Positions 1 through 27,304 of a DNA stretch of 64,000 bases are shown in pieces. The notes beneath the pieces were generated by a model that searched no databases, was not told where the DNA came from, and was given only the letters and a program-made list of their open reading frames with translations. Source of the stretch: Escherichia coli O127:H6 str. E2348/69 (GTDB lineage: Bacteria > Pseudomonadota > Gammaproteobacteria > Enterobacterales > Enterobacteriaceae); assembly GCF_000026545.1 (NCBI RefSeq), contig NC_011601.1; one strand, given 5' to 3'. Both the position numbers and the translations under genes were made by a program. Positions within the stretch are counted from its first letter, which is position 1; every line of letters begins with the position of its first letter.

Positions 1-2079
1 CGCTTTATCCAGCGAACGGAACAGATCTTTATAATCGATAATATAGCCATACTCTTTATCCTCACCGTCCAGCCGGTTCACCCGACAAATCGCCTGAAAC
101 AGCGTATGGTCGGTCATGGTTTTATCAATGTAGAGATAGGTGGCGGACGGCGCGTCAAAGCCAGTCAGCAGCTTATCCACCACGATAAGCAGGCGCATTT
201 GCCCCGGCTCTTCAATAAAACGCTGTTTCACTTCCCGCTCGAACTCGGTAATGCGTGCGGCGGCCTTCTCTTCACTTTGTTCAAAATAGTCAGCCAACAT
301 TTTACGATAGGTGGCGTGTTTAGAGAGTTTCTCCGTTAACCCTTCGCCTGTTTCTTCGCCTTTGATGCTGGCGGCATCGGGGCGATAGCTGGTCACAATC
401 GCTACTTTTCCTGCCAGCTCGGTCTGGCTGAACATCTCGTAAACCTTGCAGGCTTGATAGATACTGCTGCATACCAGCATGGCGTTGCCGCGCCCGTCCA
501 TCAGGCGTGGACGGGTATCCATATCCAACAAAATGTCGTTAACGATCTGCTCCAGCCGCGACTTGCTGGAGAGCAGCTTCTGCATTGATCCCCACTTTTG
601 CTTAAGCTGGGTCCTAGCTAAATTCGACAAGCCGCGAGTCTTGGCTTCAAACCAGTCATCGACCTTTTTCTCTGATGTCAGATACTGGTCAATATCGCGC
701 GCCTCATAGCGCAGATCCAGCACCACACCGTCGGCCACCGCTTCATCAAATTTATAGGTATGGATATAAGGGCCGAACACCTCAACCGACTTCTTCTTAT
801 CTTTCTTCATCAGCGGTGTGCCGGTAAAACCGATAAACAGGGCATCCGGCAGAATGGCAGTCATGGCGTTATGCAGCTTGCCGGATTGTGTGCGGTGGCA
901 CTCATCCACAAAAACAAACAGATCGCCTTTGGCGCAGAATGTTTTCGTCAGGGACTGCTGTAATTCGGTGATAAAGGCGTCGGTAGCCGCATTGTCTTCA
1001 GCTTCGCTGCGACGACCAAATTTATGCACCAGCGAGCAAATAAGCCACGGGTTAGGATGATTGAGCGTTGCGATAAGATCGTTGCCGCTGGAGGTGCGAT
1101 AAATATCTTCATTCACGCCCATAAACACGCTTTCGATCTGTTCATCCAGTTCGGTGCGGTCAGTCACAATCAACACGCGGGAGTTTGGCACATTTTCACG
1201 GATCCACTTCGCCAGCCAGACCATCGTCAGGCTTTTACCCGATCCCTGTGTGTGCCAGATAATACCGCCTTCACGACGGGCAATATGTTGTTTAGCCGCC
1301 TCGACGCCGAAGAACTGATTATGGCGGCAGAGTTTTTTCACCCCGACATCAAAGGCAATGTAATTATGGACGATATCCAACAGCCTGGATTTGCTACACA
1401 GACGACTTAAATGAAAGTCGAGTTTATGTGTATAGTCGCCAGGATTATCTTCTTTCCACTCCAGATAGTATTTTTCCGGGGTTTCGATGGTGCCGTAGCG
1501 CAGGCCCTGCGTATCGTTGCCTGCCATCACTAACTGCATAGTGGTGAAGAAATCGCGGATAAAGGTTTTCTTTTGATTATCGAGATTCTGCCGGATGCCT
1601 TCGCTGACGTGTACTGACGAACGCTTAAGTTCAATCACGCCCAGCGCAATGCCGTTAACGTACAGCACCAGATCCGGGCGCTTGCAGTACTCGCCTTTGA
1701 CCGTCACCTCATCAGCGATGGCGAAATCATTGGCTTGTGGGTTGGCCCAGTCAATCAGCCACACGGTTTGGTTCTGCTCGCCTGCGCCTTCTTTGTCTTT
1801 CACGCCGTAACGCAGCAGGCGATAGACCTCTTTATTGGCGTAATAGAGTTTTTTGCCTTCGCCCAGAGCGGCGGCGGAATCCAGTTGCCGCAACGCCCGG
1901 GTGATCAACGTATCATTAACGCCGCGCCGTTTTAGCCACGCGCTCAGTATATTAGTGTCGATGTTGCTGTTCCCGGTGTACCCGGTGCGGTGACTCAGAT
2001 GGCGGTAACCTAAATCTTCAACAAAAAACTGAATCAGACGCTGCTGTGTGGCGCGTTCGCGCTGGCCCACGGTACTCAA
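1..2079 (-). CDS. hsdR: Type I restriction enzyme R subunit (HsdR); the C-terminal part runs off the left edge of the window
   Basis: Absent from the ORF track because it is open at the window edge. My minus-strand translation from TTG at 2079 (AGGAG at 2086-2090, 6 nt upstream) gives LSTVGQRERATQQRLIQFFVEDLGYRHL... It has a helicase Walker A (HTQGSGKSLTMVWLA), a DEAD-like box (FVFVDECHRTQSG) and LLTGFDAP. It lies 18 nt downstream of darG in the same operon as hsdM/hsdS. Confidence 0.9.
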   Translation of the reverse strand, partial: MSTVGQRERATQQRLIQFFVEDLGYRHLSHRTGYTGNSNIDTNILSAWLKRRGVNDTLITRALRQLDSAAALGEGKKLYYANKEVYRLLRYGVKDKEGAGEQNQTVWLIDWANPQANDFAIADEVTVKGEYCKRPDLVLYVNGIALGVIELKRSSVHVSEGIRQNLDNQKKTFIRDFFTTMQLVMAGNDTQGLRYGTIETPEKYYLEWKEDNPGDYTHKLDFHLSRLCSKSRLLDIVHNYIAFDVGVKKLCRHNQFFGVEAAKQHIARREGGIIWHTQGSGKSLTMVWLAKWIRENVPNSRVLIVTDRTELDEQIESVFMGVNEDIYRTSSGNDLIATLNHPNPWLICSLVHKFGRRSEAEDNAATDAFITELQQSLTKTFCAKGDLFVFVDECHRTQSGKLHNAMTAILPDALFIGFTGTPLMKKDKKKSVEVFGPYIHTYKFDEAVADGVVLDLRYEARDIDQYLTSEKKVDDWFEAKTRGLSNLARTQLKQKWGSMQKLLSSKSRLEQIVNDILLDMDTRPRLMDGRGNAMLVCSSIYQACKVYEMFSQTELAGKVAIVTSYRPDAASIKGEETGEGLTEKLSKHATYRKMLADYFEQSEEKAAARITEFEREVKQRFIEEPGQMRLLIVVDKLLTGFDAPSATYLYIDKTMTDHTLFQAICRVNRLDGEDKEYGYIIDYKDLFRSLDKA

Positions 2080-2097
2080 AAGGCGCTCCTTAAACCC

Positions 2098-3177
2098 TCA
2101 GCAATGGAACTCCATTACGCGGTTAATGGCAAATTGCAGATTATTATTATCAAACAGCCTCAACTTACGGCTGGCCCAGCGTTCGCCCGCAGGCCACTGG
2201 TGCAGCCCTTCCTTAACGGAGTCCAGCGTTGGTTGACATTCGCCACGGCTCAGCAACCAGTCTACGGTTGCCAGCAACTCCAGACCAAACGGCGATTCAA
2301 AGCCGTCAATTAACTGGCTGACCTGCTCCAGCGCAGGTAGCCACTCTCTGGCTTCGTTGTTCAGATACGCATTAACGTGTTCTTTTTTCTGATCGTTAAA
2401 CCAGATCACATCCAGCGGTTGGCTGTCCGGGATGCGTTTCTCGGCTTTAAGATAGGTGCCGTCCAGCGCATTAAGCAGATGGTTCAGATTGGGCGCATAG
2501 GGGCCATAATAGTGAGCTTCAAACCGCAGTTTGAGGATATCGTCCTGTTGATGCTGCTCAATGGCGCGTTGTAACAGCCAGGCCAGTTTCTGGATTTCCA
2601 GTAGGCTGCACTCCATCCCCAATACCCAGTAGCGACGCACCAGTTCAGCGATGGCGGCTCTGGCGGGAGTGAGCTTTTTTACGCCAGTGCTTTTGGCAAC
2701 GTTCTGGTATTTTTCAGTCGGTTGGTAAATCAGGATATCAACGTCCTGAAGGTCGCCAAGGGCAGATTCAATCTGCGCCCGAACGTCCGGCCAGTTCAAA
2801 CCACCGTTGCCTGCGCCCAGTGGTGGAATGGCGATGGACTGCACGTTCTCTTCAATCAAAAAGCGGCGTAAGTCCTGCAAGCCATCTTCAATCCACTCCA
2901 TGCGGGAATCAGCGCGCCAGTGCTGTTTGGTCGGAAAATTAACAATCCAGCGCGGTCCCATCAGTTCCCCGGTTTCGGTAATGAACATTTTGCCGGTGAT
3001 CACCTGCTTTTGTTTGCAGGCGAGGGCATAGACTTTCATATTTTCGGGGAAGCGCTCTTTAAACATCAACGCGATGCCTTTCCCCATGACACCGACGGTA
3101 TTAACCGTATTCACCAGAGCTTCCACCGGTGCGTCCAGTAAATTGCCTTGTGTATATGTGATCATGAGAAGTACCAT
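2098..3177 (-). CDS. darG: DarG antitoxin: N-terminal macrodomain (ADP-ribosyl-DNA glycohydrolase) plus a C-terminal DarT-binding domain
   Basis: 359-aa ORF. Macrodomain pattern: [34 protein letters not shown] ... [14 protein letters not shown], followed by a ~200-aa second domain. It overlaps the darT stop. The ATG at 3165 gives a 4-nt ATGA overlap and a typical [10 protein letters not shown] start, so 3165 may be the true start. Confidence 0.85.
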
Positions 3178-3818
3178 CCAGACCGTGTGTGAACGGACAT
3201 TGTTAGATTACGCTGAAACAGCCATTGTTCTAATTGTAACCTGACCTCTTCGCTGTAACAAATTATCCCATCCAGCAGAGAGATCGGGCAGTGTTGCCAG
3301 ATTAGCGCCTCTGCCTGATAGCGTTCAAATTTAGCCGGATCGTCTGGATCGCGGCGAAAGTCCCGTGCCTGCAAAATGGGCCAGTCGATCTGGTCCAGAC
3401 TATTCAGACTGGTGTAGTAGTTGGTCCAGTTATAGTAAGCATGGCTGTCGGTAAACACGAAGGGCACGTCGTGTGCTGCCACGTTCCGCAAGTTGCTGAC
3501 CAGAATAACGATCTCCTCATTGGGGCGTCGCTTAATGCCGCCGCGCCCGCTGTGGATGTTCATCAGCATTGGCGAGAAGGGGGTAAAATAAAACGGCACA
3601 TAGTCATGCAGTGTCCCGCCCGTTCCGACAGGTACCGGATGCCCGGCACGCTTGCCGATCAGCTCCGGGTTGCCGATATTGATCCAGTTTTCCGCCTGCA
3701 CCAGACTGTTGCCGCAGTGCAGCCCGTTATCCAGAATCCACGGGATATTGTCCCGATGGACGATACGCCAGATCAGGGCTTTTTGCGGGTTGAGGCTGGC
3801 GCTGTAGTCATAGGCCAT
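3162..3818 (-). CDS. darT: DarT toxin (DUF4433 family ssDNA thymidine ADP-ribosyltransferase)
   Basis: 218-aa ORF. I recognise DUF4433/DarT-like blocks: [36 protein letters not shown], and [10 protein letters not shown] with an ARTT-like Glu. It is paired with and overlaps a macrodomain gene. Its start is 11 nt after the hsdS stop. Confidence 0.8.
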
Positions 3819-3829
3819 AGGTTTCCCTT

Positions 3830-5197
3830 CTATATTAAGCGGGTTTTCCCGGTTAACAACTCCTGCATCATCCCCTGTTTAAGCTGACGGGTTTTGTCCA
3901 GACGCTGTTGCAGGGTCTGAATTTCCTTGTCCATATCGGAGAGGATGGTGGCGATGGCGGTTTGTTCTTCTTTTGGCGGAAATGCAAGATGTAATTTCCT
4001 GATAATAGTAAGATTCAACCCACCACGCCCCCCATCACCAGTAGATAAACTTCTCAGTTCCTCATAACGACTGTCGAGGTTATAGAACAGGAATTCTGTG
4101 GAATGATGTTTGCTGGGGAAAATCGCAGCAATAGACTGATTAGTACATAATTCAATGCGATTAATTGCTACAGTCCCTCGAGTCTTTCCTTGTCCTGCCA
4201 ATCCGACTAATACAGAATTTTTAGGCACATACTTTGTACTGGAGTTAACAAGCCCTTCGTCGGTTATATAATCGGCTACAGCATACACCTGTTTTAGGTG
4301 TAATTCGCCGGAACTCATCCAAGGATGAGTTCCTCCCCAATATGCTGAAATTTTAGTACTCGGAGTTCCACCAGCACAGCAGTCAGTAAATTGTCCAATG
4401 CTTGTGACTACCCAATCTTCAGGAATCGCCCCCAACTCGCTCTTTTTATATCCCTTAGCAGAGCCATCTTTGCGCAACGCAAACTGTGGCAAACGGGTTT
4501 TACCAGTCAGTAGTTGCTGCATTGTGGCAGTTTTGATGGACTGTTTTTTTGAGAGTAATTTTTCTAGGGATAGAATCAAGCTATCAACATTGGTTAATAC
4601 ATTAGCAATAGCCTTTTGCTCTACGATATTTTTCGGTATAGATATGCATAACTTCTCTAAAACTGAACGTTTAATCCCTTGGGCCGTTGAACCAGTCGCG
4701 CTTTCAGAAATATATGATTGAAAACGCTCTGATAATAAGATTTGGAGTATTAGTGATGGAGAAAAATTCTCTCTATCTATTTGTAAAAGAATTGTTCTCT
4801 GGCTAAGAATATATTTTTTGTTATCAGGAATAGATGCTGCATTCCCCAGAGGGGCTTCCATTGTGAAAGCTATGTCCCCTTTTTGGGGATGACCGGATGT
4901 CATCCAGCGCTTATATAGTTCTTCGGAACCAAAGTAACATTCAGTAGATAAATCTATATATCCTTTTTTAACATTAGCAGCAGAAAGGGCAACGATATCC
5001 CCATCCCCCCAATCCATTCCAAGTTTTTTGGGAGTTCTGCCGCGATAATCAATTATGTTGGTTGTCAGGTTTAATATCGTGGATACAACCCAATCCTCAG
5101 GAATCATCTCCATCTCAGTCAGCTTATACCCCGCAGGCACACCTTTCCCCACCGTACCCGACCGTTGCTCATTCAGCATTAAATCCACCATCACCAC
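3830..5197 (-). CDS. hsdS: Type I R-M specificity subunit (HsdS) with two target-recognition domains
   Basis: 455 aa. It shows the classic duplicated architecture: IPEDWVV occurs twice and the conserved spacer LLTGKTRL occurs twice (central and C-terminal). The start region overlaps the hsdM stop (GTG at 5197, or ATG at 5191 overlapping the TGA). Confidence 0.9.
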   Translation of the reverse strand: MVMVDLMLNEQRSGTVGKGVPAGYKLTEMEMIPEDWVVSTILNLTTNIIDYRGRTPKKLGMDWGDGDIVALSAANVKKGYIDLSTECYFGSEELYKRWMTSGHPQKGDIAFTMEAPLGNAASIPDNKKYILSQRTILLQIDRENFSPSLILQILLSERFQSYISESATGSTAQGIKRSVLEKLCISIPKNIVEQKAIANVLTNVDSLILSLEKLLSKKQSIKTATMQQLLTGKTRLPQFALRKDGSAKGYKKSELGAIPEDWVVTSIGQFTDCCAGGTPSTKISAYWGGTHPWMSSGELHLKQVYAVADYITDEGLVNSSTKYVPKNSVLVGLAGQGKTRGTVAINRIELCTNQSIAAIFPSKHHSTEFLFYNLDSRYEELRSLSTGDGGRGGLNLTIIRKLHLAFPPKEEQTAIATILSDMDKEIQTLQQRLDKTRQLKQGMMQELLTGKTRLI

Positions 5198-7629
5198 TCC
5201 AGCCCCATCGCCCGCAAATGCCCGGCCACTTTCTCGCTCAACGCCTCAACGGCGGCTGCAAGTGCTGGCAACGGTTCAGCATAACGCTCTTCCAGCTCCT
5301 TTACGCGCGACGCCAGTTGCTGGGTAATACGCTCTATCTCCGCTTTGATCCCTGCCTGCAATGTTGCCAGCCACTTATCCTGCACTACCAGCGTTTTAAT
5401 CGCTGCTTCATCCAGCGTGGGATAATGTTTAAATACCGCTCGATCCAACGCTTTCTGTGCGGCTTTTAGCGCTTTTTTCGCACTGGCCTCGGCCTTAATC
5501 AGCGCCAGACAGCGGTTCAGCACTGCCAGCTCATCCGGGTCGGCAGGGGTTTTCTTCAACTGTGCCAGACGGGCATTCACCAGCTTTTGCGTCACCTTAT
5601 CTTTATCGTTTTTCGCCTCAGCCAGCAGATCCTCTTCCCCTGCCTGCTCCTCGATGAATTCCACTAGCTGACGACTGGCTTCTTCACTACGCTCCTGCGC
5701 GCGGTTCAGCGCATCCAGCAGTTCCGGGAAACAGCGAATTTCCACCAGCGAACGGGGCAGCACATCGGCCTTGTAGCGCCGTTTGGTAAACTCGAAATCG
5801 TGCGTTTCTTTCCAGATGTTTTTGCCATCTTTGCCTTTCACCGGCTGAAGCTCGCGGATTTGCGCGGCGGCTTGCCAGCCATCCTGCATAATCACATACA
5901 CATCGTCCTGCATGACATCAGCCCAGTAATCCATCAGGATCTGGTACACGCTGTATTTGTTCAGCAACTCACTGTTGGCGTACTGCGCCAATAGCATTTC
6001 GCTGATATCGTGGATTAGCGCTTTGGGTTTATCTCCTTTGCGGATCTCTTCCAGACCTGCCTCTTTTACCCACGACTTAAACGGTAGCAGGCTGCGGGTG
6101 GCAAAATCCTTAAACTCCTGATGAGCCAGAATGGTCGGTTTCACCTGCTGAGCGTCCACTTGCGCCCGGCAGTAACCGGGGTGGTCGTCAGCAAACAGCA
6201 CATTACGCAGGGCAGGGAATACCCGCCAATAATCCTTCAAAGCATCTACATCGCGCACTGGAATACCGCCTTGTAAGTGCGCGGTCAGATCGTGCAAATC
6301 TTCCGGCTCTCCACTCTCGATATAACGAGGAATATTCAGGTTGTAATCATTCCCGGCGATCTCGCTGGAGGGCACCATCCGGCTGTAGCCTGGCACCGTT
6401 CGCTGATGGTTGAACACGTCCACAATACGGTGAATATCTTGGCTACGCAGGCGGTTCTTGTTGCCATCTTTGATAAAGCCCCGACTGGCGTCGATCATAA
6501 AAATGCCTTTGCGGCTGTGGGCGTGCTCTTTATCAATCACAATGATGCACGCCGGGATGCCGGTGCCGTAAAACAGGTTGGCTGGCAAACCAATAACGCC
6601 TTTGATATAGCCCTGCTTGATTAGGTTTTCACGGATATTCGCTTCGGCGTTACCGCGAAACAGTACGCCGTGGGGCAGGATTACCGCGCCTTTGCCGGTA
6701 CTTTTCAGGCTTTTAATGATATGCAACAAAAAAGCATAATCGCCGTTTTTTTCCGGCGGAATACCCCAGCCGAAGCGTTCAAACGGATCTTTTTTTGGCG
6801 TCAGCCCGTTGGTCCAGTTTTTATTGGAAAAAGGCGGGTTCGCCACGGCAAAATCGAAGGCTTTCAGTTTGCCGTTCGCCTCTTTCCACTGCGGATCGCT
6901 CAGCGTATTGCCCTGCCAGATTTTCGCGGTGGCATTGTTATGCAGAATCATGTTCATCCGCGCCAGCGCACTGGTAGCGTTATCCATCTCTTGGCCGAAA
7001 ATCGACAGTCCGCGCCGGGCTTCATCATTCACTTTCAACAGCAGCGAACCAGAGCCACAGGTTGGGTCATAAACCGTTGCATCTCGCGGCGTATCGGGAG
7101 TAATACCAATCACCTTCGCCAGAATACGTGACACCTCCGCCGGAGTGTAAAACTGTCCTTTACTCTTGCCGGATTCGGTTGCGAAGTGACGCATCAGATA
7201 TTCATAGGCATCGCCCAGCAGATCGTCGCCTTCGACCCGGTTGCTGGAGAGATCTAACCCTTCAAAGATACCGACAAGCTTGCTCAGGCGGTCAATCATT
7301 TCCTTGCCTTTGCCGAGTTTATCTTCGTCGTTAAAGTCGGCTTCGTCGATGACGCCCTTCAGGCCGTTCTCTTCCGCCAGCTTGTGGATGATTTTGTTGA
7401 TTTTATCGCCGATCTCTTTGTCATTTTTCAGCGCAACCATATCGTCAAAGCTGGCTCCTTTGGGTATCACGATCATCCCGTAAGGATCGCCTTTATACTT
7501 ATCGGAAACGTACTTCATAAACAGCAGGGTCAGTACATAGTCTTTGTACTGGCTGGCGTCCATCCCGCCACGCAGTTCGTCGCAGCTTGCCCACAGGGAA
7601 GAATAGAGTTCGGTTTTTTTGATAGCCAT
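5191..7629 (-). CDS. hsdM: Type I R-M N6-adenine DNA methyltransferase subunit (HsdM) with a long C-terminal coiled-coil extension
   Basis: 812 aa. N-terminus is HsdM_N-like (MAIKKTELYSSLWASCDELRGG). AdoMet motif I is YDPTCGSGSLL and catalytic motif IV is VANPPFSNKNW. About 330 further residues follow YNLNIPRYIE and are rich in A/E/K/L heptad-like sequence. Confidence 0.9.
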   Translation of the reverse strand: MAIKKTELYSSLWASCDELRGGMDASQYKDYVLTLLFMKYVSDKYKGDPYGMIVIPKGASFDDMVALKNDKEIGDKINKIIHKLAEENGLKGVIDEADFNDEDKLGKGKEMIDRLSKLVGIFEGLDLSSNRVEGDDLLGDAYEYLMRHFATESGKSKGQFYTPAEVSRILAKVIGITPDTPRDATVYDPTCGSGSLLLKVNDEARRGLSIFGQEMDNATSALARMNMILHNNATAKIWQGNTLSDPQWKEANGKLKAFDFAVANPPFSNKNWTNGLTPKKDPFERFGWGIPPEKNGDYAFLLHIIKSLKSTGKGAVILPHGVLFRGNAEANIRENLIKQGYIKGVIGLPANLFYGTGIPACIIVIDKEHAHSRKGIFMIDASRGFIKDGNKNRLRSQDIHRIVDVFNHQRTVPGYSRMVPSSEIAGNDYNLNIPRYIESGEPEDLHDLTAHLQGGIPVRDVDALKDYWRVFPALRNVLFADDHPGYCRAQVDAQQVKPTILAHQEFKDFATRSLLPFKSWVKEAGLEEIRKGDKPKALIHDISEMLLAQYANSELLNKYSVYQILMDYWADVMQDDVYVIMQDGWQAAAQIRELQPVKGKDGKNIWKETHDFEFTKRRYKADVLPRSLVEIRCFPELLDALNRAQERSEEASRQLVEFIEEQAGEEDLLAEAKNDKDKVTQKLVNARLAQLKKTPADPDELAVLNRCLALIKAEASAKKALKAAQKALDRAVFKHYPTLDEAAIKTLVVQDKWLATLQAGIKAEIERITQQLASRVKELEERYAEPLPALAAAVEALSEKVAGHLRAMGLEW

Positions 7630-7668
7630 TAAATATCTCGTTTTGCGCGATAATGTGCCGTAAGTCGG

Positions 7669-7914
7669 TTACAGCAGATCGGTATTCAGACCGGCGGCCT
7701 TTAACCGACGGGTTAAGTTACGCATTTTGCTGAATTCGGTACCGAGGCTCTGGCTCAGACCAGTGCCTTCGCAAAAGGCTTTTGCCGTAATGTGTTCCAG
7801 TTTGTCGGCATATTTAATCATTTGCAGGTGCAGCTCGACGGTGTACTGGTTACGAGGCGCACTGGAAAGTGCCTGCCGGATATGGCGATAAATCTCGTCT
7901 TCATCCATATTCAT
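7669..7914 (-). CDS. Small hypothetical protein upstream of hsdM, possibly an HTH regulator; start uncertain
   Basis: The ORF track gives 7669..7983, but the first 23 codons translate the tandem repeat (LANLANLANL). MNMDEDEIYRHIRQAL from the ATG at 7914 looks like the real start. A possible helix-turn-helix is AKAFCEGTGLSQSLGTEFSKMRNL. It is co-oriented with hsdM and ends 39 nt upstream of it. Confidence 0.45.
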   Translation of the reverse strand: MNMDEDEIYRHIRQALSSAPRNQYTVELHLQMIKYADKLEHITAKAFCEGTGLSQSLGTEFSKMRNLTRRLKAAGLNTDLL

Positions 7915-7939
7915 GGTAACCACTGGTATAATGGATAAG

Positions 7940-7966
7940 TTAGCTAAATTAGCTAAATTAGCTAAA
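7940..7966. repeat. Three perfect tandem copies of TTAGCTAAA; each contains the 8-bp palindrome TTAGCTAA (candidate operator)
   Basis: Read directly: aagTTAGCTAAaTTAGCTAAaTTAGCTAAatg. Adjacent copies form 17-bp inverted repeats around a central A. The array lies just upstream (minus-strand sense) of the small ORF and the hsd operon. Confidence 0.8.
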
Positions 7967-9059
7967 TGTGGTATCAGGTTCAAGAACTACAGTGGGAGTC
8001 GGATTTGACTGCGCGATTTATGCACGTAAATGCCTTGTGGCGGATTAATGGCTGCAGTATCTTCTCCTTCCGCGCCTGCAAAATCAGGCGTCAGAATTAG
8101 CCTCCTGAAAACCGTTACAGGAGACTTCTCTATAGACTACAATCCTTGTCCCTGACTGCGATTTACTCGATCTATTGTTCGTTCCCTTATAATGCCACTA
8201 TAGATTTTACCGCCTTGGTCGACAACTGCGCCCGCTTTGCCGAATCCCTGATAGAAACCTAGGATCTTGCGCTGTAGCTTACCCTCTGCGGGCGATCTTG
8301 TACTGCTGCAACTCACGCAACACGACCTCATCCCGCCGCATCTTAACGAAAGCCTGCTCAGTGATACTCTCCCCACCATGCCAGAGCAGGTTATTTCTGA
8401 ACCTGATTCTTGTGCGAATATTGCCTCGTGCGGGCTGTGCATCATCGCCGCTCTTTGATAAGAGGCGTCAAAGGTAAGGGGCGTAGCGTTATTAGTTTGG
8501 GCTATACACTTGCGCTACAACTCTTCAAATAGCTATATATCAACAATATTTAGCCATAAACCGTCTACTTCCGTCTCAATTATACTCAAATTAAGGCATG
8601 CGGCATCTTTGTGACACATTTGTTTTTTTTATACAGGTTAGAGTTGACCTGCTCTCCGTTGATTAACTCACATTGTTGTTAACCACGTCTACTTTTAGCA
8701 CGACACTGATGCGTTAACTGAGCGAATGGTCTGCTTTGAGCGAGGAACGGACGTTCGCTTTCGGGTAACCTAACCCATATGCCAGAGGATCTCTAAGAGA
8801 TAATGGGTCGTTTAAGCGTGGCACTTACAGTATCAACGCCTCCGCACCCGACAACGTCTTGACTGCTGCAGATTCACTGAATAGACTGGTGACCTTTATC
8901 TTCATTTTGCGTGCAGCAAAATAAAGTTTTTGACTTACGAAAATCGTCGATTCGACTTAATTATACTAAGGGTTTTATGCTGACTTTTCATTGTGGGATA
9001 CACTAAATTAGTGAGATGAGAATTTATCTAACTGTCATTAACATAAGTAGGATTTAAAA

Positions 9060-9428
9060 ATGGCTAATAGCGAAATTGTTCCGTTTTCTGAAATTGTTAC
9101 AAGCAAAATAGACCTCAATCAAGCTGTAGCTCAAGGTCAAGAGATGACTGATACTCTTAAAAAAATGGGTATCAAAGAAGCGACATTTGATAGTGGAGCT
9201 TACTATAAACATGATCACGAATCGCAGACCACTACTCTTGCAGCTGATGGAATCTTGATGCGGCAGAGCCTCCACATTACAACAGTTATTTTCCGTAACG
9301 AAGGAAGTACTGAACAACAAGCTTTAGAGGAGCTTAATGCTGGTTCTCTGACACAAAAAACCTTAGGTGCATTCTCTGGAGTCTCTCAACAGAGAGCGTC
9401 TGAGCTACTCCAAATTGAAAAAGAATAA
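9060..9428 (+). CDS. Hypothetical protein (122 aa) with a possible C-terminal HTH
   Basis: ORF in a visibly AT-rich block. The C-terminus LTQKTLGAFSGVSQQRASELLQIE resembles an Xre-type HTH. I recognise no family. Confidence 0.45.
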   Translation: MANSEIVPFSEIVTSKIDLNQAVAQGQEMTDTLKKMGIKEATFDSGAYYKHDHESQTTTLAADGILMRQSLHITTVIFRNEGSTEQQALEELNAGSLTQKTLGAFSGVSQQRASELLQIEKE

Positions 9429-9441
9429 TTATAAATAGGTT

Positions 9442-9467
9442 AGTAACGGCAGTTTTCTGCCGTTACT
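9442..9467 (+). other. Perfect 11-bp stem / 4-nt loop hairpin between the two small ORFs
   Basis: agtaacggcag-tttt-ctgccgttact read directly. There is no clear U-tract, so a terminator role is uncertain. Confidence 0.5.
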
Positions 9468-9497
9468 AAGAGTATTTACTCAAAATTAGGGAGTATT

Positions 9498-9884
9498 ATG
9501 GGATTCAATGACCAGCCCAAAAACCTGAAAAAATCCATTAACGATAAATATAACAGAAGGGTAAAGTCACTTTCTCGGCATCTCGAGGATTTTATTTATC
9601 ATGCAGAAATGAAACTGGACGAATCTATTTCTGGAAGGATTTATCGCAGAAGCGAGATTGAGTCAATTGTTGAGAAAGTAAAAGAATTGATGGCTATCCT
9701 TCCGGCTTCAGATGAACCTCCTTCAATTAATTTTGATATTCTTGAAATCATTGAGAATGCAACAGAAGAAACTCAGCGCATTTTATCAGAAGGACAAAAA
9801 TTCTTCGACAACCTCTCTCCTGAAGAATTGGCAGAAATGATATCAACATTCCAACAAAATAAAAAAGATAGTGAATCTGAGTGA
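9498..9884 (+). CDS. Hypothetical acidic, helical protein (128 aa)
   Basis: Good RBS (GGGAG 7 nt upstream of the ATG). The predicted protein is Glu/Ser/Ile-rich with no motif I recognise. AT-rich codon usage matches the neighbouring ORF. Confidence 0.5.
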   Translation: MGFNDQPKNLKKSINDKYNRRVKSLSRHLEDFIYHAEMKLDESISGRIYRRSEIESIVEKVKELMAILPASDEPPSINFDILEIIENATEETQRILSEGQKFFDNLSPEELAEMISTFQQNKKDSESE

Positions 9885-10464
9885 TAACCCAGTTTAATAC
9901 GATATGAATCTAAGTCTAAACTATCAAAAAAAGCAGATAGTGAACTTAAATAGATATTATGAGAAGCTCCGAGTTTGCGTGGCTTCCTTTATCTATGTGG
10001 TCAACCTACAGACACCCAATGAAATAAATCCTTTCATTTCATTGAAGTGTTTAAATAAACTCCATCGGGAGCCTTTTTTGTTTGAAGATCTGCTCCCCGT
10101 TGATTAATACATCGTGATGTCACCAATGTCCGCTCTTGGCACTCAACTGCCATAGGCGGGCCCAAGGGCAGCTTCGAACGCAGGCTGTATGAAAACTCTG
10201 ATTGCTGATAGAAGGTCACGCGTTTTGATGACTTCTTAGAAAATTTACATAGAAAGATGATGCAGATTTTACTTAAAAGCGCAGGCGTCAGCCTCTTTTG
10301 CATTCACCTCTGAAGCTTAAACCGTTTTCACACAGTCTGAGCGAATTACAGACGCAACACTAAGTTTATTGCGCCCTTGAGCACAATCTTGACCAATGTG
10401 TAGAACTCATTGGAAAAAAAAGTGCGGAAAATAGAGAATTAACTCAAGTTTTGTTTATATAGTT

Positions 10465-10881
10465 CTAAATGAATTTATCATGCCAAAAATACGTTGCGCC
10501 AGTTACATTTTGTGCATGAACTTGCCCATATTCAAATGTAGGTTCTTTCTTCATATGTTGCGTATTCAACTCTGGTTTACTCCAATAAATCAAGTTCGCT
10601 TCAAATTCACTCAATAGTTTCTCAGCGAAATCAAAAGGCTTAATCCATTCTATTGGGATGGTTTTGCTGTTTTTTAAAAAAACAACGCAGCACAAATATA
10701 TACGCTTTGACAAATTGTCATATTTAGGATGGTGTAACTTAGTAATTGCGCTATGGCCTGAAGAAAATCGTGAGCTCTTCGATGATGTCTTGCCGATGTA
10801 AACAAGCCTTTCATTTTCATCATCTCCAACTGTAATCAAATAAATAGGATAACAAGCTAGAGGGGCCTTGATCCTACCCAC
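10465..10881 (-). pseudogene. GIY-YIG-like domain protein; its 5' end and promoter are replaced by the IS3 terminus
   Basis: PIYLITVGDDENERLVYIGKTSS resembles the GIY...YIG nuclease motif. The first 4 codons (MGRI) lie inside the IS3 inverted repeat, which starts at 10869, so the native N-terminus is lost. Confidence 0.4.
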
Positions 10882-10898
10882 GTAATATGGACACAGGC

Positions 10899-11765
10899 CT
10901 AAGCGAGGTTCTGGTTTTCAAATTGTTCCGGACTGAGGCCGCCACACCAACTGTGCCGCCGCCACCGATTGTAATCACATTCGATATAATTAAACACCGT
11001 TGCCCGCATTATTTCCCGGCTGATAAAGTGTTCTCCATGGATACATTCCACTTTCAGCGAATGAAAGAAGCTTTCCACGCAGGCATTATCGTAGCAGCAA
11101 CCTTTTGCGCTCATACTTCCACGCAGATTATGCCGCTTCAGTTGCGCCTGATAATCTGCTGAACAGTACTGGCCTCCACGGTCCGTGTGAACGATAACGT
11201 TCCGGGGCCTCTTACGCCGCCATAGCGCCATCTGCAGGGCATCGCAGGCCAGTTGCGCCGTCATGCGTGGCGACATTGACCAGCCAATAACGGCACGTGA
11301 CCACAGGTCAATGACCACTGCCAGATACAGCCAGCCTTCATCTGTACGTAAGTACGTGATGTCTCCTGCCCACTTCTGGTTCGGGCCACTGGCGTAAAAA
11401 TCCTGCTCCAACAGATTTTCTGACACAGGCAGGCCGTGTGCGCGGTAGCTGACCGGGCTGAACTTCCGGGAGGCCTTTGCCCTCAGTCCCTGATGGCGCA
11501 GGCTTGCCGCCACGGTTTTTACGTTAAAGGGGTAACCCTGAGCACGCAGTTCATCCGTCAGGCGTGGGGCACCGTAACGCTGTTTTGACCGGGTAAAAGC
11601 CGCGAGGACAACGCTGTCGCAGTGTTGGCGGAACTGCTGACGCGTGCTTATCCTTGTCCGCCGCTGACACCACGTATACCAGCCGCTGCGGGCCACCCGG
11701 AGCACGCGGCACATTGCTTTGATGCTAAACTCAGCCTGATGTTTTTCAATAAAGACATACTTCAT
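10899..11765 (-). CDS. insF: IS3 transposase OrfB (InsF)
   Basis: 288-aa ORF with an rve/DDE integrase core (WAGDITYL..., [19 protein letters not shown]). It overlaps orfA as expected for -1 frameshifting. Confidence 0.9.
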
Positions 11766-12061
11766 TTCAGGCGCTTCGCGAAGTATGTCGCGGCCTTTTG
11801 GAGGATAGCCAGCTCTTCATCCCGTTCTGCCAGCTGGCGTTTGAGACGTGCAATCTCGGTAGACATCTCCAGTTCACGTTCAGAAGACGTCTGCTGATTT
11901 TGCTGTTTACTGCGCCAGTTGTAGAGCTGTGATTCATACAGGCTGAGTTCACGGGCTGCGGCAGTAACACCGATGCGTTCAGCAAGCTTCAGGGCTTCAC
12001 TGCGAAATTCAGGCGAATGCTGTTTACGGGGTTTTTTACTGGTTGATACTGTTTTTGTCAT
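11762..12061 (-). CDS. insE: IS3 transposase OrfA (InsE)
   Basis: [40 protein letters not shown]... has an HTH plus a leucine zipper. The ORF track extends it 3 codons upstream, to 12070. Confidence 0.85.
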
Positions 12062-12127
12062 GTGAGTCACCTCTGACTGAGAGTTTACTCACTTAGCCGC
12101 GTGTCCACTATTGCTGGGTAAGATCAG

Positions 12128-12223
12128 ATATCCATTACCCGCTCGCAACTGGCAATGCTCCTCGATAAGCTGGACTGGCGTCAGCCAAAAACATCCCGCC
12201 TTAACGCACTGACAATGTTGTAA
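12128..12223 (+). pseudogene. C-terminal 31 codons of IS66 TnpB (orf2)
   Basis: My translation is ISITRSQLAMLLDKLDWRQPKTSRLNALTML*, which matches the conserved IS66 TnpB C-terminus as I remember it. It begins immediately at the IS3 end. Confidence 0.7.
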
Positions 12224-12253
12224 AAAACGCCGGGCCGGATTATAAAAACGGCC

Positions 12254-13867
12254 ATGAGTCAGAAATACCTCATTCGCATCGCTGAGCTGGAAAGGCTGCT
12301 CTCTGAGCAGGCTGAAGCCCTCCGTCAGAAAGACCAGCAACTGAGTCTGGTTGAAGAGACGGAGGCCTTCCTGCGCTCTGCACTGGCACGTGCCGAAGAA
12401 AAGATCGAAGAAGATGAGCGAGAAATAGAGCATCTGCGGGCTCAGATAGAAAAACTGCGCCGGATGCTGTTCGGAACCCGTTCTGAAAAACTGCGTCGTG
12501 AGGTTGAACAGGCTGAAGCCCTGCTGAAACAACGCGAGCAGGAAAGCGATCGTTACAGTGGGCGTGAGGATGACCCACTGGTTCCCCGCCAGTTGCGACA
12601 GTCGCGCCATCGTCGTCCGTTACCGGCACATCTCCCCCGTGAAATATACCGCCTGGAGCCTGAAGAAAGCTGTTGCCCGGAGTGTGGCGGTGAGCTGGAT
12701 TATCTGGGGGAAGTCAGCGCAGAACAACTGGAACTGGTGAGCAGCGCCCTGAAAGTGATCCGCACAGAACGGGTAAAAAAAGCCTGTACAAAATGTGACT
12801 GCATCGTTGAAGCACCGGCGCCGTCCTGCCCGATAGAGCGTGGTGTCGCGGGCCCCGGATTACTTGCCCGCGTGTTAACGGGAAAATACTGCGAACACCT
12901 GCCACTGTATCGTCAGAGTGAAATCTTTGCCCGACAGGGTGTCGAACTGAGCCGTGCATTACTCTCCAACTGGGTTGACGCGTGCTGCCAGTTAATGACG
13001 CCGCTGAATGATGCCCTGTACCGTTATGTGATGAATACCCGCAAGCTTCACACTGACGACACACCGGTAAAGGTACTGGCACCGGGCCTGAAAAAGACGA
13101 AAACAGGGCGCATCTGGACGTATGTCCGGGATGATCGCAATGCGGGTTCGTCATCTCCTCCGGCGGTCTGGTTCGCGTACTCATCGAACCGGCAGGGGAA
13201 ACACCCGGAGCAACACCTCCGCCCCTTCCGGGGTATCCTGCAGGCGGATGCGTTCACAGGTTATGACAGGCTGTTCAGTGCAGAACGTGAAGGTAGTGCG
13301 CTGACAGAAGTTGCGTGCTGGGCTCATGCCCGGAGAAAAATCCACGATGTATACATCAGCAGCAAAAGTGCGACGGCAGAAGAAGCCCTGAAGCGAATCA
13401 GTGAACTGTACGCCATCGAGGATGAAATACGGGGATTACCAGAGTCAGAGCGTCTTGCAGCCAGGCAGCAGCGAAGCAAAGCGTTACTGACGTCGCTGCA
13501 TGAATGGATGGTGGAGAAGAATGGCACGCTGTCGAAAAAATCCAGACTGGGCGAAGCGTTCAGCTATGTACTGAATCAGTGGGACGCCCTCTGTTATTAC
13601 AGTGATGACGGTCTGGCGGAGGTGGACAATAACACAGCGGAAAGAGCGCTTCGTGCAGTCTGTCTCGGAAAGAAAAATTACGTGTTCTTCGGTAGCGATC
13701 ACGGCGGCGAGCGTGGAGCACTGCTGTACGGGCTGATCGGCACCTGCCGACTGAACGGTATCGATCCGGAAGCGTATCTGCGCCATATTCTGAGCGTACT
13801 GCCGGAATGGCCCTCCAACCGTGTTGACGAACTCCTGCCATGGAACGTAGTACTCACCAATAAATAA
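12254..13867 (+). CDS. IS66-family transposase TnpC
   Basis: 537 aa. It has an N-terminal coiled coil, a CPECGGEL zinc motif, and a DDE region (HTDDTP..., LQADAFTGY, DNNTAERALR). Confidence 0.9.
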   Translation: MSQKYLIRIAELERLLSEQAEALRQKDQQLSLVEETEAFLRSALARAEEKIEEDEREIEHLRAQIEKLRRMLFGTRSEKLRREVEQAEALLKQREQESDRYSGREDDPLVPRQLRQSRHRRPLPAHLPREIYRLEPEESCCPECGGELDYLGEVSAEQLELVSSALKVIRTERVKKACTKCDCIVEAPAPSCPIERGVAGPGLLARVLTGKYCEHLPLYRQSEIFARQGVELSRALLSNWVDACCQLMTPLNDALYRYVMNTRKLHTDDTPVKVLAPGLKKTKTGRIWTYVRDDRNAGSSSPPAVWFAYSSNRQGKHPEQHLRPFRGILQADAFTGYDRLFSAEREGSALTEVACWAHARRKIHDVYISSKSATAEEALKRISELYAIEDEIRGLPESERLAARQQRSKALLTSLHEWMVEKNGTLSKKSRLGEAFSYVLNQWDALCYYSDDGLAEVDNNTAERALRAVCLGKKNYVFFGSDHGGERGALLYGLIGTCRLNGIDPEAYLRHILSVLPEWPSNRVDELLPWNVVLTNK

Positions 13868-13897
13868 GCGTCAATACGGTGTTCCGTTGACGCTTAC

Positions 13898-13934
13898 GAG
13901 AACTGTTCAGGGAGTCTGACATCAAGAGCGCGGT
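13898..13934 (-). mobile_element. IS911 remnant (end of orfA), separated from the rest by the IS30 insertion
   Basis: The minus-strand reading continues the IS911 OrfA frame across IS30: ...EILKKAT|ALLMSDSLNSS, as in IS911 OrfA from memory. The remnant abuts the IS66 terminus. Confidence 0.65.
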
Positions 13935-15046
13935 TGTAGATTCAATTGGTCAACGCAACAGTTATGTGAAAACATGGGGTTGCGGAGGTTTTTTGAATGA
14001 GACGAACATTTACAGCAGAGGAAAAAGCCTCTGTTTTTGAACTATGGAAGAACGGAACAGGCTTCAGTGAAATAGCGAATATCCTGGGTTCAAAACCCGG
14101 AACGATCTTCACTATGTTAAGGGATACTGGCGGCATAAAACCCCATGAGCGTAAGCGGGCTGTAGCTCACCTGACACTGTCTGAGCGCGAGGAGATACGA
14201 GCTGGTTTGTCAGCCAAAATGAGCATTCGTGCGATAGCTACTGCGCTGAATCGCAGTTCTTCGACGATCTCACGTGAAGTTCAGCTAATCGGGGCAGACG
14301 CTATTACAAAGCTGTTGATGCTAATAACCGAGCCAACAGAATGGCGAAAAGGCCAAAACCGTGCTTACTGGATCAAAATTTACCATGGCGAAATCTTGTT
14401 CTGGAAAAGCTGGAGATGAAATGGTCTCCAGAGCAAATATCAGGATGGTTAAGGCGAACAAAACCACGTCAAAAAACGCTGCGAATATCACCTGAGACAA
14501 TTTATAAAACGCTGTACTTTCGTAGCCGTGAAGCGCTACACCACCTGAATATACAGCATCTGCGACGGTCGCATAGCCTTCGCCATGGCAGGCGTCATAC
14601 CCGCAAAGGCGAAAGAGGTACGATTAACATAGTGAACGGAACACCAATTCACGAACGTTCCCGAAATATCGATAACAGACGCTCTCTGGGGCATTGGGAG
14701 GGCGATTTAGTCTCAGGTACAAAAAACTCTCATATAGCCACACTTGTAGACCGAAAATCACGTTATACGATCATCCTTAGACTCAGGGGCAAAGATTCTG
14801 TCTCAGTAAATCAGGCTCTTACCGATAAATTCCTGAGTTTACCGTCAGAACTCAGAAAATCACTGACATGGGACAGAGGAATGGAACTGGCCAGACATCT
14901 AGAATTTACTGTCAGCACCGGCGTTAAAGTTTACTTCTGCGATCCTCAGAGTCCTTGGCAGCGGGGAACAAATGAGAATACAAATGGGCTAATTCGGCAG
15001 TACTTGAACCGCCCCGGGTTTCCTGGAGAGTGTTTTATCTGTGAAC

Positions 15047-19479: not shown

Positions 19480-21867
19480 ATGATGCACGAAAAGAACATC
19501 GCCCTGCTTTGTGATGAAGCCGACCGGCTTTTGCAACTGAATATCAATCTGCTCCGGCAAATGGTTGATGAGCCGGATGTGTTATCTGACAGTAAGAACG
19601 AAAACGGGCTGCTTTTTGATAAACGGAAAGCGCTGAAAAGAATTGAGGAGCTGGAGGGCGAACAAATCAAAACCGCCCGCAGGGAGATGGTGCTGGCTGT
19701 GGTCGGCACGATGAAGGCGGGCAAATCAACCACCATCAACGCCATTGTGGGGCAGGAAATTCTGCCCAACCGTAACCGCCCCATGACCTCGGTACCGACA
19801 TTGATCCGCCACGTTCCCGGAAAAACGGAACCGGTCCTCCATCTGGAACATATTCAGCCCGTCCGCAATTTATTAATCACACTGCAGGAAAAACTCGCCA
19901 CCCCGGCAGGGCAGCAAGTCGCACAGTCCCTGCAGCAAACCGGGGATACCCGCGAACTACTGGATATTCTGGCGGATGATGTCTGGCTTAAAAATGAATA
20001 CCACGGGGAAGACGAAATCTTTACCGGACTGGCATCGTTAAATGACCTGGTTCGTCTTGCTGCGGCAATGGGGACTGAATTTCCTTTTGACGAATACGCA
20101 GAAGTGCAGAAACTACCGGTGATCGACGTGGCGTTCAGCCACCTGGTGGGAATGGATGCATGTCAGGGAACACTCACACTGCTGGATACCCCCGGCCCTA
20201 ATGAAGCCGGACAACCACAGATGGAAATGATGATGCGGGATCAACTACAGAAAGCCTCTGCGGTGCTGGCGGTGATGGATTACACCCAGATGAACTCGAA
20301 AGCCGATGAGGAGGTTCGTAAAGAGCTTAATGCCATTGCTGACGTCTCAGCCGGTCGTCTGTTTGTGCTGGTCAATAAATTCGATGAAAAAGATCGCAAT
20401 GGTGATGGTGCGGATGCCGTACGCCAGAAGGTGCCAGCAATGCTGAACAGCGATGTGCTGCCCGCCTCCCGCGTTTATCCCGGCTCATCACGTCAGGCGT
20501 ACCTTGCTAACCGTGCGCTTCATGAGTTACGAAAAAACGGTGCGCTTCCGGTTGATGAAGCCTGGGTCGATGATTTTATCAGGGAAGCTTTCGGACCTAT
20601 GGTGGAAGAGGACGACTGGAAAGACAGCACTAAGGTAAATAAAAAGGCAGAAAAACTCTGGAATATATCTCTGATCGATCAACTGATAACGGAAGTCATA
20701 CAGAGCTCCCATTCCAGAGCGGCGGCACTGGCGGTTGACTCTGCCGCCGCAAAACTGATGCAGAATGCAGAAAATATCAGCGAATATCTGTCATTACGTC
20801 ATCAGGGGCTGCAGCAAAGCATTCAGTCACTACAGGCGCATATTACCAGCCTGCTGGCGGATATCCAGGAGATTGAGGAATGTCAGAATCAGGTGACCGG
20901 TGATGTCAGAATGGCCATGGAGGACATCAATACCAAAACCGGGGAATTACTGACGAAGGTCTGTGCCTCACTGGAGGAGGAGCTGAACGACTATTTCAGA
21001 AGCGGTAAACGCAAAGAACAGCAAATGCTGGAGGAAGAAAATTCAGCGCAGCCCCGGGAGAGAAACGCATTCGCTTTCTTTCACGATATTTTCGGAACCG
21101 GAAATCAGCATGACAGGATGCGGGACTTTGATCCGGACAGCCCCGAAATAAAATTCAGTGATCGCAGGGCAGCCCTTGAACTGATGACGCAAATCGAATC
21201 GACCGTGACCAGCCTGCACCGTGAGGCTGAAGCACAGTTCCGGCCTGAGCTGGAGAAAATCGTCAGCGGGATTGAAACAGGTTTTCGTGGCACGGCCCTG
21301 TACGCCACAGAAAACATTGCCGGTCGCATCAATGCCCGCCTGGAGGATGAGGGCTTTACCGTAAAAATCAGTTTTCCGGCAGTCAGCCAGTTACAGACCC
21401 GGCTCGCGGTAAAAATAAATCTGAGTGCGCTTATGGAGGAAAGAACGGAGACCGTCACCCGTCGCCGTCGGCAGAGTGGCGTATGGGGAACCGTTTGTCG
21501 ATGGTTTGGCACCAGTGACCTGGGCTGGGAAAACTATGACGAGGATGTGAGTCGCAGCGTGATCAATATCAACAAGGTCAGAGAGGAAGTTATGTCACTG
21601 ACCCGGGCATATTTCGGGGAGCTGCAGGCATCCATTGAGCAGGATATTAACCAGCCCGTCCGCCAGGAAATCGATGCCTTTTTCTGCGCATTCAGGGAGA
21701 AAGTTGAACAACTGCGTAACACGCTGATTCAGAGCTCTGAAGATCATAAACGCGATCAGCAGGCGCAGGAACGGCTTACCGGGCGACTTCAGGCATTAAA
21801 TGAAAGGGTTCCTGAGCTCATTACTGACAGTAAGGCGCTGAGGGAAGAGCTGGAGACAATGCTGTGA
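19480..21867 (+). CDS. Bacterial dynamin-like GTPase, apparently a paralogue of YjdA (CrfC/RdcA)
   Basis: 795 aa. G1 is GTMKAGKST (aa 76-84), G3 is LLDTPGPNEAG, and G4 is VLVNKFDEKD, followed by a long helical stalk. The N-terminal half aligns closely with my recollection of K-12 YjdA. The RBS AAGGTG is at 19473-19478, so the second ATG at 19483 may be the real start. Confidence 0.85.
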   Translation: MMHEKNIALLCDEADRLLQLNINLLRQMVDEPDVLSDSKNENGLLFDKRKALKRIEELEGEQIKTARREMVLAVVGTMKAGKSTTINAIVGQEILPNRNRPMTSVPTLIRHVPGKTEPVLHLEHIQPVRNLLITLQEKLATPAGQQVAQSLQQTGDTRELLDILADDVWLKNEYHGEDEIFTGLASLNDLVRLAAAMGTEFPFDEYAEVQKLPVIDVAFSHLVGMDACQGTLTLLDTPGPNEAGQPQMEMMMRDQLQKASAVLAVMDYTQMNSKADEEVRKELNAIADVSAGRLFVLVNKFDEKDRNGDGADAVRQKVPAMLNSDVLPASRVYPGSSRQAYLANRALHELRKNGALPVDEAWVDDFIREAFGPMVEEDDWKDSTKVNKKAEKLWNISLIDQLITEVIQSSHSRAAALAVDSAAAKLMQNAENISEYLSLRHQGLQQSIQSLQAHITSLLADIQEIEECQNQVTGDVRMAMEDINTKTGELLTKVCASLEEELNDYFRSGKRKEQQMLEEENSAQPRERNAFAFFHDIFGTGNQHDRMRDFDPDSPEIKFSDRRAALELMTQIESTVTSLHREAEAQFRPELEKIVSGIETGFRGTALYATENIAGRINARLEDEGFTVKISFPAVSQLQTRLAVKINLSALMEERTETVTRRRRQSGVWGTVCRWFGTSDLGWENYDEDVSRSVININKVREEVMSLTRAYFGELQASIEQDINQPVRQEIDAFFCAFREKVEQLRNTLIQSSEDHKRDQQAQERLTGRLQALNERVPELITDSKALREELETML

Positions 21868-26929: not shown

Positions 26930-27304
26930 ATGAAAACATTATCCGACACACATGTACGGGAGGTATCTCGCTGCCCGTCTCCCGTCACCATCTGGCAGAC
27001 ACTGCTCATCCGACTGCTGGACCAGCATTATGGCCTCACACTGAATGACACACCGTTTGCCGATGAACGTGTGATTGAGCAGCATATTGAGGCAGGCATT
27101 TCACTGTGTGATGCAGTTAATTTTCTCGTGGAAAAATACGCGCTGGTGCGTACCGACCAGCCGGGATTCAGCACCTGTCCCCGCTCTCAGTTAATAAACA
27201 GTATTGATATCCTCCGGGCTCGCCGGGCGACCGGCCTGATGACCCGCGACAATTACAGAACGGTAAATAACATTACCCTGGGTAAGTATCCGGAGGCGAA
27301 ATGA
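26930..27304 (+). CDS. cbtA: CbtA/YeeV-family toxin (cytoskeleton-targeting, type IV TA)
   Basis: This is the [46 protein letters not shown]... portion of ORF 26828..27304, starting at the ATG at 26930, 46 nt after the antitoxin stop. Confidence 0.85.

Follow-up and report, generated by a model that had tools for sequence, protein, structure and literature searches.

A DarTG2 toxin-antitoxin pair lies between hsdS and hsdR in the RptR-repressed RRDM island of Escherichia coli E2348/69

We analyzed a stretch of 64,000 nucleotides from the chromosome of Escherichia coli O127:H6 str. E2348/69 (RefSeq assembly GCF_000026545.1, contig NC_011601.1), hereafter called the window, in which a DarT-DarG toxin-antitoxin pair is found on the minus strand between the hsdS and hsdR genes of a restriction-modification system of type I. 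This locus is the seven-gene RRDM island (RptR-RMS-DarTG2-M48) reported by Zhang et al. in 2025 (Nucleic Acids Res, PMC12255303). The best explanation of its organization, to which we give a probability of about 0.9, is a two-layer defence island read from one RptR-repressed promoter, with restriction as the first line, DarTG2 as the second, and hsdR made last from a weak start; we infer a single transcript, a coupling of dosage and a division of labour between the two layers. In such an island, the seven genes would constitute one transcription unit in which darT-darG and hsdR-M48 are translationally coupled. HsdR, whose TTG start is weak and remote from the promoter, would be made after and below the methylase, and any transcript yielding HsdR would already have yielded DarT and DarG. 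Restriction would then provide the first defence line and DarTG a second one, of the abortive type, for phages escaping restriction, the darTG pair being a putative mobile cassette that would use the hsdS-hsdR interval of HsdR-M48 type I systems as a cargo slot.

By comparing positions 1-8500 of the window with the E2348/69 chromosome, we found 100.0% identity, and the RefSeq gene calls match the locus with the same darG and hsdR starts as those chosen in the original prediction, which had been made from the sequence alone. The locus is identified as RRDM by 100% DNA identity, by shared RefSeq protein accessions, by an RptR that corresponds to PDB entry 9R2Z, and by the presence of both the TTGAAC -35 box and the three TAGCTA repeats. 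The name RRDM (RptR-RMS-DarTG-M48) and the same seven RefSeq protein accessions are given in PMC12255303. According to that study, E. coli DH5alpha carrying a clone of the whole island under its native promoter is protected from the phages Trib, Baz, TB34, lambda-vir and T7, by more than 10^7-fold for Trib and Baz and about 10^4-fold for lambda-vir and TB34, with T7 plating cut by about 10^3-fold, and hsdM mRNA goes up more than 15-fold upon infection. The original prediction had also stated that a linkage between darTG and type I restriction-modification genes had been noted before; the insertion of DarTG into type I operons was stated together with the idea of a locus stabilizer by Jankevicius et al. 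in 2016 (PMC5179494); a 2021 review repeats the point on insertion. Hence, the locus, its components, its promoter, its repressor, its anti-phage activity and the stabilizer idea are all in print, and only the proposed dependence of hsdR on read-through of darTG lies outside the published coverage. As a discovery, the locus is therefore of limited weight, being already described in detail.

A six-frame list of open reading frames (ORFs) together with a direct reading of the junctions reproduced the predicted gene order on the minus strand, that is rptR, hsdM, hsdS, darT, darG and hsdR, to which the M48 peptidase gene adds a seventh co-oriented gene, with all island junctions within -4 to +39 nt. 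The island promoter and operator (7937-7983) precede rptR (7669-7908; 79 aa, WP_000343040.1), which is followed by the methyltransferase subunit gene hsdM (5191-7629, 812 aa), placed by Pfam, PADLOC and the junction sequence. The TGA stop of hsdM (5193-5191) overlaps by 1 nt the hsdS ATG at 5191, which is the RefSeq start, and an alternative GTG start is found at 5197. The specificity subunit gene hsdS (3830-5191; WP_000228010.1), in which the GC content falls to 0.37-0.46, ends with a TAG stop (3832-3830) and is separated from the darT ATG at 3818 by an 11-nt gap (3819-3829) that includes AAGGGA. The toxin gene darT (3162-3818; 218 aa, WP_000312835.1) has its TGA stop at 3164-3162 and forms an ATGA overlap with the ATG at 3165 used by RefSeq for the antitoxin gene darG (2098-3165; 355 aa, WP_000634203.1). 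Finally, the darG TGA stop (2100-2098) is followed by an 18-nt junction (2080-2097) carrying a Shine-Dalgarno sequence, AAGGAG at 2091-2086, 6 nt ahead of the TTG start of hsdR at 2079. RefSeq uses the same start for hsdR (1-2079; WP_000108733.1), 693 of whose 1031 codons are in the window, the gene being cut by the window start. The overlap of the hsdM and hsdS ends, the 11-nt gap, the ATGA overlap at the 3165 start and the 18 nt ahead of a TTG-initiated hsdR had all been proposed, and each of them stood; for the 3165 start, alignment to the Thermus and Mycobacterium DarG proteins agrees with RefSeq.

The assignment of the three restriction-modification genes was borne out by strong Pfam and PADLOC matches throughout. 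HsdM combines an N6-adenine methylase domain (N6_Mtase, 9.6e-104, 347.5 bits) with HsdM_N (2.6e-17, 64.1 bits) and reaches 1425 bits with the PADLOC MTase_I profile, while HsdS matches Methylase_S over two stretches (5.3e-36), that is with two target-recognition domains, and PADLOC Specificity_I at 5.3e-153 (508 bits). HsdR carries the N-terminal nuclease domain HSDR_N (2e-41, 142.5 bits) and a superfamily 2 (SF2) motor, with matches to SWI2_SNF2 (7.9e-70, 235.4 bits) and T1R_D3-like (1.7e-38, 132.9 bits) and 1204 bits with PADLOC REase_I; its C-terminus lies outside the window and is intact in the genome record. In the literature on the locus, we found no recognition site or hsdR-specific phenotype for this type I system. 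Beyond the window start, the M48 peptidase gene (7268-7984 in locus L001) overlaps the hsdR stop by 1 nt and encodes a protein of the YgjP-like family (Pfam, 1.4e-61).

The profile searches and the alignments to Thermus and Mycobacterium proteins that had been proposed as checks on darT and darG left no doubt about either gene, with scores far beyond the thresholds and the catalytic residues in place. DarT matches the Pfam DarT family (PF14487, DUF4433) over profile positions 1-201 of 201 at 2.5e-53 (181.2 bits for a cut-off of 22.5), the PADLOC DarT profile at 1.4e-74 (248 bits) and PDB entry 7omv at 4.8e-26. Its Glu170 (QAEAL), the catalytic Glu of the ADP-ribosylating turn-turn (ARTT) loop, is matched in 7omv by the Ala (QAAFL) of the E160A construct crystallized for Thermus sp. 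and is invariant in an alignment of DarT proteins; G49 is also present. The darT product is thus a DarT2-type thymidine ADP-ribosyltransferase acting on single-stranded DNA (ssDNA). As for DarG, it has an N-terminal macrodomain ADP-ribosyl glycohydrolase (Pfam Macro, 2.7e-21, 76.1 bits for a cut-off of 22), covers positions 1-326 of 329 of the PADLOC DarG profile (1.4e-127) and matches PDB entries 5m31 (4.2e-55) and 5m3i (1.5e-53). Its macrodomain is 57-58% identical to those of Thermus aquaticus (Taq) and Mycobacterium tuberculosis (Mtb) DarG, with the catalytic Lys80 in an invariant FPTK motif, and its residues 183-351 match chain B of 7yk3, co-crystallised with the transferase (5.4e-13), which makes them the C-terminal DarT-binding domain.

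The activities of these very proteins are published. Lawaree et al. (Cell Rep 2020, PMC7003065) reported that DarT of enteropathogenic E. coli (EPEC) attaches ADP-ribose to the thymidine of ssDNA at TTT/TCT, that it stalls replication, and that the DarG macrodomain reverses the modification; the relief of toxicity by DarG is published there as well. According to the introduction of PMC12255303, DarG of the DarTG2 type has a further way to inactivate DarT, which is to sequester it physically. Lawaree et al. number DarG from a start that would lie 26 codons downstream of 3165 (K54/K54A; domains 1-126 and 127-330), so that their K54 is K80 in the 355-aa RefSeq protein. We favour the 3165 start since the longer form restores the N-terminus that is conserved in Taq and Mtb DarG.

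A single sigma-70-type promoter is located upstream of rptR. First, the rptR product matches Pfam HTH_73 (1.9e-28), is annotated in RefSeq as an HTH-like protein of 79 aa, and its translation is identical over 79 of 79 residues to chain A of PDB 9R2Z. Second, a -35 box TTGAAC is present at 7983-7978 and is followed by three copies of TTAGCTAAYTT with a 9-bp spacing at 7937-7965, where 0.08 would be expected by chance; these direct repeats, each with the RptR site TAGCTA, overlap the -10 boxes. An island regulated by RptR is recognized by a 79-aa RptR encoded first and by two or more TAGCTA-type sites in the rptR promoter, and here there are three. These observations agree with PMC12255303, where green fluorescent protein (GFP) reporter and electrophoretic mobility shift assay (EMSA) data are given for a promoter with the -35 TTGAAC and a -10 inside AGCTAATTT, and where RptR is a dimeric repressor (crystal structure 9R2Z) that binds the three TAGCTA-containing direct repeats over the -10. 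On this point the original prediction has to be amended, as its small ORF (7669-7983) is too long: the real gene is 7669-7908 and the extra 75 nt are the promoter and operator. We rejected the TTG at 7983 as the start codon of a 104-aa ORF. Given the TTGAAC box, the repeats and the identity of the 79-aa RptR, this start is therefore the -35 box, and the operator, when translated as part of the long ORF, gives its LANLANLAN stretch. Overall, the original interpretation was partly supported: it was right on the identity of every gene and erred on the extent of the small ORF, missing the nature of RptR, the promoter with its operator and the terminal M48 gene, while its idea that hsdR would be expressed solely by transcription through darTG is plausible.

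One natural variant of this promoter was seen in E. coli FXCREC123 (L004, ~10950-12150; window equivalent ~7960), where an IS5 element is inserted in the first TAGCTA operator repeat, so that the -35 box is cut off from rptR and from the other two repeats. This IS5 junction was seen in only one of 5426 complete E. coli genomes.

Then, we looked at the junctions for signals that could separate hsdR from darTG. The original prediction had seen no hairpin and no promoter-like gap between the genes, and this was upheld, as the three junction RNA folds are no more stable than shuffles (z = 0.20, -1.17 and -1.15, with z = 0.20 for darG-hsdR), a consensus scan detected no terminator-like site at the minus-strand junctions and neither a terminator- nor a promoter-like site in the darG-hsdR junction (2080-2097), and the gaps are too short for a promoter. 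The scan totals (10 terminator-like sites for 9.7 expected; 12 promoter-like sites for 10.1 +/- 3.2 in shuffled sequence) equal chance and cannot by themselves decide the coupling question. No match was found with Rfam at gathering thresholds in window positions 1-12000. In nine other species, darG stands directly before hsdR with a gap of -4 to 74 nt, the hsdR starts being five ATG, three GTG and one TTG; in these species, darT and darG overlap or abut and the hsdR-M48 junctions range from -4 to +4 nt. Tight junctions, the lack of a junction hairpin and the conservation of the junctions in other species would fit a single transcription unit with translational coupling, a pattern in the sequence that is compatible with co-transcription and falls short of proof.

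To place the EPEC locus among its relatives, one genome per species was scanned with two conserved DarG macrodomain peptides, the best 80 of 587 confirmed matches were kept, and the corresponding loci (L005-L084) were annotated by six-frame ORFs and by hidden Markov models (HMMs) iterated from the EPEC proteins. Among these, darG was fully embedded, with hsdM and hsdS upstream and hsdR downstream on the same strand, at 12 loci, 11 of which have M48 after hsdR; three loci cut by a contig end are consistent with embedding, 10 have type I genes nearby in another arrangement, and 22 were not assessable. At the remaining 33, the 5 kb on each side are free of type I genes, a count to be read as an upper bound since distant type I families could be missed. 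Thus, 15 of the 58 assessable DarG loci are embedded or consistent with embedding, which bears on the question, raised by the original prediction, of how often darTG interrupts hsdS-hsdR elsewhere. The two closest DarG relatives among the best 80 of 587 matches, from Rosenbergiella (92%) and Pseudescherichia (84%), stand outside any restriction system, and darTG therefore behaves as a mobile cassette.

The same loci show that the position between hsdS and hsdR can hold other genes. A GmrSD-like pair and a Fic protein are found in the slots of L007 and L010, and in L007 (Marinomonas) the pair adjoins darTG. AAA_21 and RloB genes occupy the slot in L033, where they were confirmed by Pfam, and homologues that look alike by eye do so in L062; the slot of L072 holds a DUF4062 protein and a Schlafen/AlbA_2 protein, that of L024 a NucS-like nuclease, and L011 has a YhcG nuclease between hsdM and hsdS. 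Within E. coli, darTG is present at 95% identity or more in 248 of the 5426 complete genomes and the matching hsdR at 90% identity or more in about 250 records of this set. In 11 further E. coli records, the hsdR-M48 backbone is only 75% identical, and in the two that we inspected (L002 and L003; strains MB22 and 2013C-4991) the slot between hsdS and hsdR holds two GmrSD-like genes with overlapping junctions and no darTG (GmrSD_N+DUF7834 and GmrSD_N+GmrSD_C, at 11072-14567 in both L003 and L002). We found no E. coli record with the same hsdR and an empty site, three records with 90-95% hsdR identity being uninspected. Together, we infer that type I systems of the HsdR-M48 family probably have a swap-in slot between hsdS and hsdR that receives DarTG, GmrSD-like pairs, Fic, RloB/AAA_21 or Schlafen-like genes across species. 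This comparison extends the remark in PMC12255303 that the site may be a recombination hotspot, and offers a modest context for the idea that new defence genes can be traced through guilt by embedding.

Two further features of the surveyed darTG genes were observed. In six other species, darT is directly preceded by a second DarT-family gene of smaller size (158-199 aa), giving a darT'-darT-darG module (L005 8770-9345, L038 8784-9359, L039 1789-2367, L041 8763-9359, L033 218-787 and L007 8870-9346). This gene is absent in EPEC. The four paralogues that were scanned match Pfam DarT at 1e-14 to 1e-20, and the paralogues may be active transferases since the Glu matching EPEC E170 is kept in the five that were aligned. 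Also, DarG occurs inside type I slots where no DarT was detectable, as a full-length protein in L010 (8457-9536) and, in L062 (9923-10462) and L072 (6632-7081), as fragments of about 150-180 aa that comprise only the macrodomain and stand immediately behind hsdS and ahead of other cargo. These DarT-less genes could be cassette remnants or orphan antitoxins.

The reading of the locus as a two-layer operon, already put forward in the original prediction, agrees with the island-wide phage protection published in PMC12255303, the separate contributions of the layers lying outside that work. Four points weigh against it. The protection was measured there for the whole island, so that restriction and DarTG are not separated; only hsdM mRNA was measured, with no RNA evidence reported for a single transcript, and the words operon, co-transcription and internal promoter are absent from the paper; the 33 of 58 assessable loci lacking a type I gene within 5 kb show that DarTG does not need a restriction context; and a minus-strand promoter-like match at 3261-3233 (TTGTTA-17-TACAAT, 9 of 12), which falls within the 3' end of darT some 70 nt ahead of darG and is no better than chance, could nevertheless give independent expression of darG and hsdR. 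The last point belongs to a broader alternative, in which darTG and/or hsdR would be under their own internal promoters, as is hsdR in classical type IA and IC systems, and R dosage would be untied from read-through of darTG. Many toxin-antitoxin modules are indeed autoregulated from their own promoters, and besides the 3261-3233 match, minus-strand promoter-like matches are found inside hsdS (4587-4558) and hsdR (1754-1726). But such matches are no more frequent than in shuffled sequence, the 11-nt and 18-nt gaps could not accommodate a promoter, and the tight darG-hsdR junctions recur in the nine other species. Moreover, neither darTG2 nor hsdMSR could be cloned directly behind the unrepressed island promoter, which the authors of PMC12255303 attribute to toxicity; this failure suggests that the island promoter is the main driver of both, and we consider separate internal promoters unlikely.

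Two other explanations accept the gene order and dispute the role of darTG in it. As explicitly proposed by Jankevicius et al. (PMC5179494), darTG could be a selfish stabilizer of the restriction locus with little part in phage defence, all the protection coming from HsdMSR. The almost invariable joint inheritance of darTG and the related hsdR in complete E. coli genomes (248 genomes and about 250 records, respectively) speaks for such addiction, and the strongest protection, against Trib and Baz, is of a size that restriction alone could give. However, the introduction of PMC12255303 refers to DarTG2-type systems as reported anti-phage defences, and the slot elsewhere holds bona fide defence genes (GmrSD/TgvAB-like, RloB/AAA_21) and not just toxin-antitoxin pairs. 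The island also acts on T7, which, as the same introduction notes, carries the anti-restriction protein Ocr and yet is blocked about 1000-fold; a component other than restriction may therefore act on this phage, and a pure stabilizer seems quite improbable to us. The T7 result would equally suit a guard resembling PrrC, in which DarTG would monitor the type I enzyme, keep silent as long as it is intact, and fire once the enzyme, or the expression of the operon, is disabled by host shut-off or by a phage anti-restriction protein (T7 Ocr, for example). The prrC gene is likewise embedded, at a comparable place, in EcoprrI, a type IC locus, and inhibition of the enzyme by T4 Stp activates it (PMC12707154; PMC1484252, PMC2610378). 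Against such a guard, over half of the assessable DarG loci, those of the two nearest EPEC DarG relatives among them, lack type I genes within 5 kb, which speaks against an obligatory dependence on the enzyme, DarTG alone is reported to defend when introduced (LeRoux 2022, as cited in the PMC12255303 introduction), DarG is already a self-contained antitoxin mechanism (PMC7003065), and the literature reports no interaction between DarTG and Hsd proteins. We hold this guard to be very unlikely, and retain the two-layer island under one RptR-repressed promoter.

A bolder extension would make the embedding itself functional, the YgjP-like M48 peptidase acting as a trigger or governor that might degrade RptR, DarG or HsdR on infection, with DarTG as a PrrC-like back-up when restriction is blocked. 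The mechanism of derepression is left open in PMC12255303, which cites the protease-repressor precedent CapP/CapH and whose tests do not extend to the role of M48. M48 follows hsdR in 11 of the 12 fully embedded loci and also on the backbone with GmrSD cargo, at junctions of -4 to +4 nt, and RptR was detected in only one locus outside E. coli (L011); M48 therefore tracks HsdR and not RptR, and a dedicated RptR protease, which we considered, is unlikely. The governor model as a whole strikes us as highly doubtful. If it were true, restriction, DarT release and derepression would form one coupled circuit.

The island is part of an insertion sequence (IS)-rich genomic island, with IS3, IS66, IS30 and IS100 remnants (window ~8500-29200), bounded by a tRNA-Ser gene at ~29078-29165. 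A low-GC stretch (0.35-0.40) at 9060-10881 adjoins the RRDM genes and contains two hypothetical genes on the plus strand (9060-9428 and 9498-9884) and an unannotated 138-aa ORF on the minus strand (10465-10881). The region also carries a dynamin/RdcB/patatin-like gene cluster (~19483-23836), a CbtA/YeeU toxin-antitoxin pair (~26930-27680) and an antirestriction gene, while a macrodomain gene of the core genome, ymdB, is found at ~37331-37864.

Compared with known systems, the sequence studied here does not differ from the RRDM island, except that the window stops short of the last third of hsdR and of the M48 gene; co-transcription, internal promoters and the separate roles of the restriction system and DarTG are beyond what PMC12255303 covers. 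Likewise, the EPEC DarTG of PMC7003065 consists of the same proteins, with E170 and G49 of DarT and K80 of DarG present; this DarT shares only about 29.5% identity with Taq DarT, and its preferred motifs are TTT/TCT, not TNTC (PMC7003065). Other type I hsd clusters host a second defence module as this one hosts darTG, notably the Campylobacter Rlo genes and TgvAB of the Vibrio cholerae island VPI-2 (bioRxiv 10.1101/2024.04.04.588119). TgvAB is a GmrSD-like pair inside the cluster, which the pair found in E. coli L002 and L003 resembles, but that cargo is a type IV, modification-dependent restriction system whereas darTG is an ADP-ribosylating toxin-antitoxin pair. A parallel in design is PrrC in EcoprrI, where the gene of an abortive-infection effector also sits inside a type I hsd cluster. 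There, a single tRNase is held latent by the restriction enzyme and triggered by a phage anti-restriction peptide. DarTG, unlike PrrC, brings its own antitoxin, attacks DNA and often occurs without a type I system.

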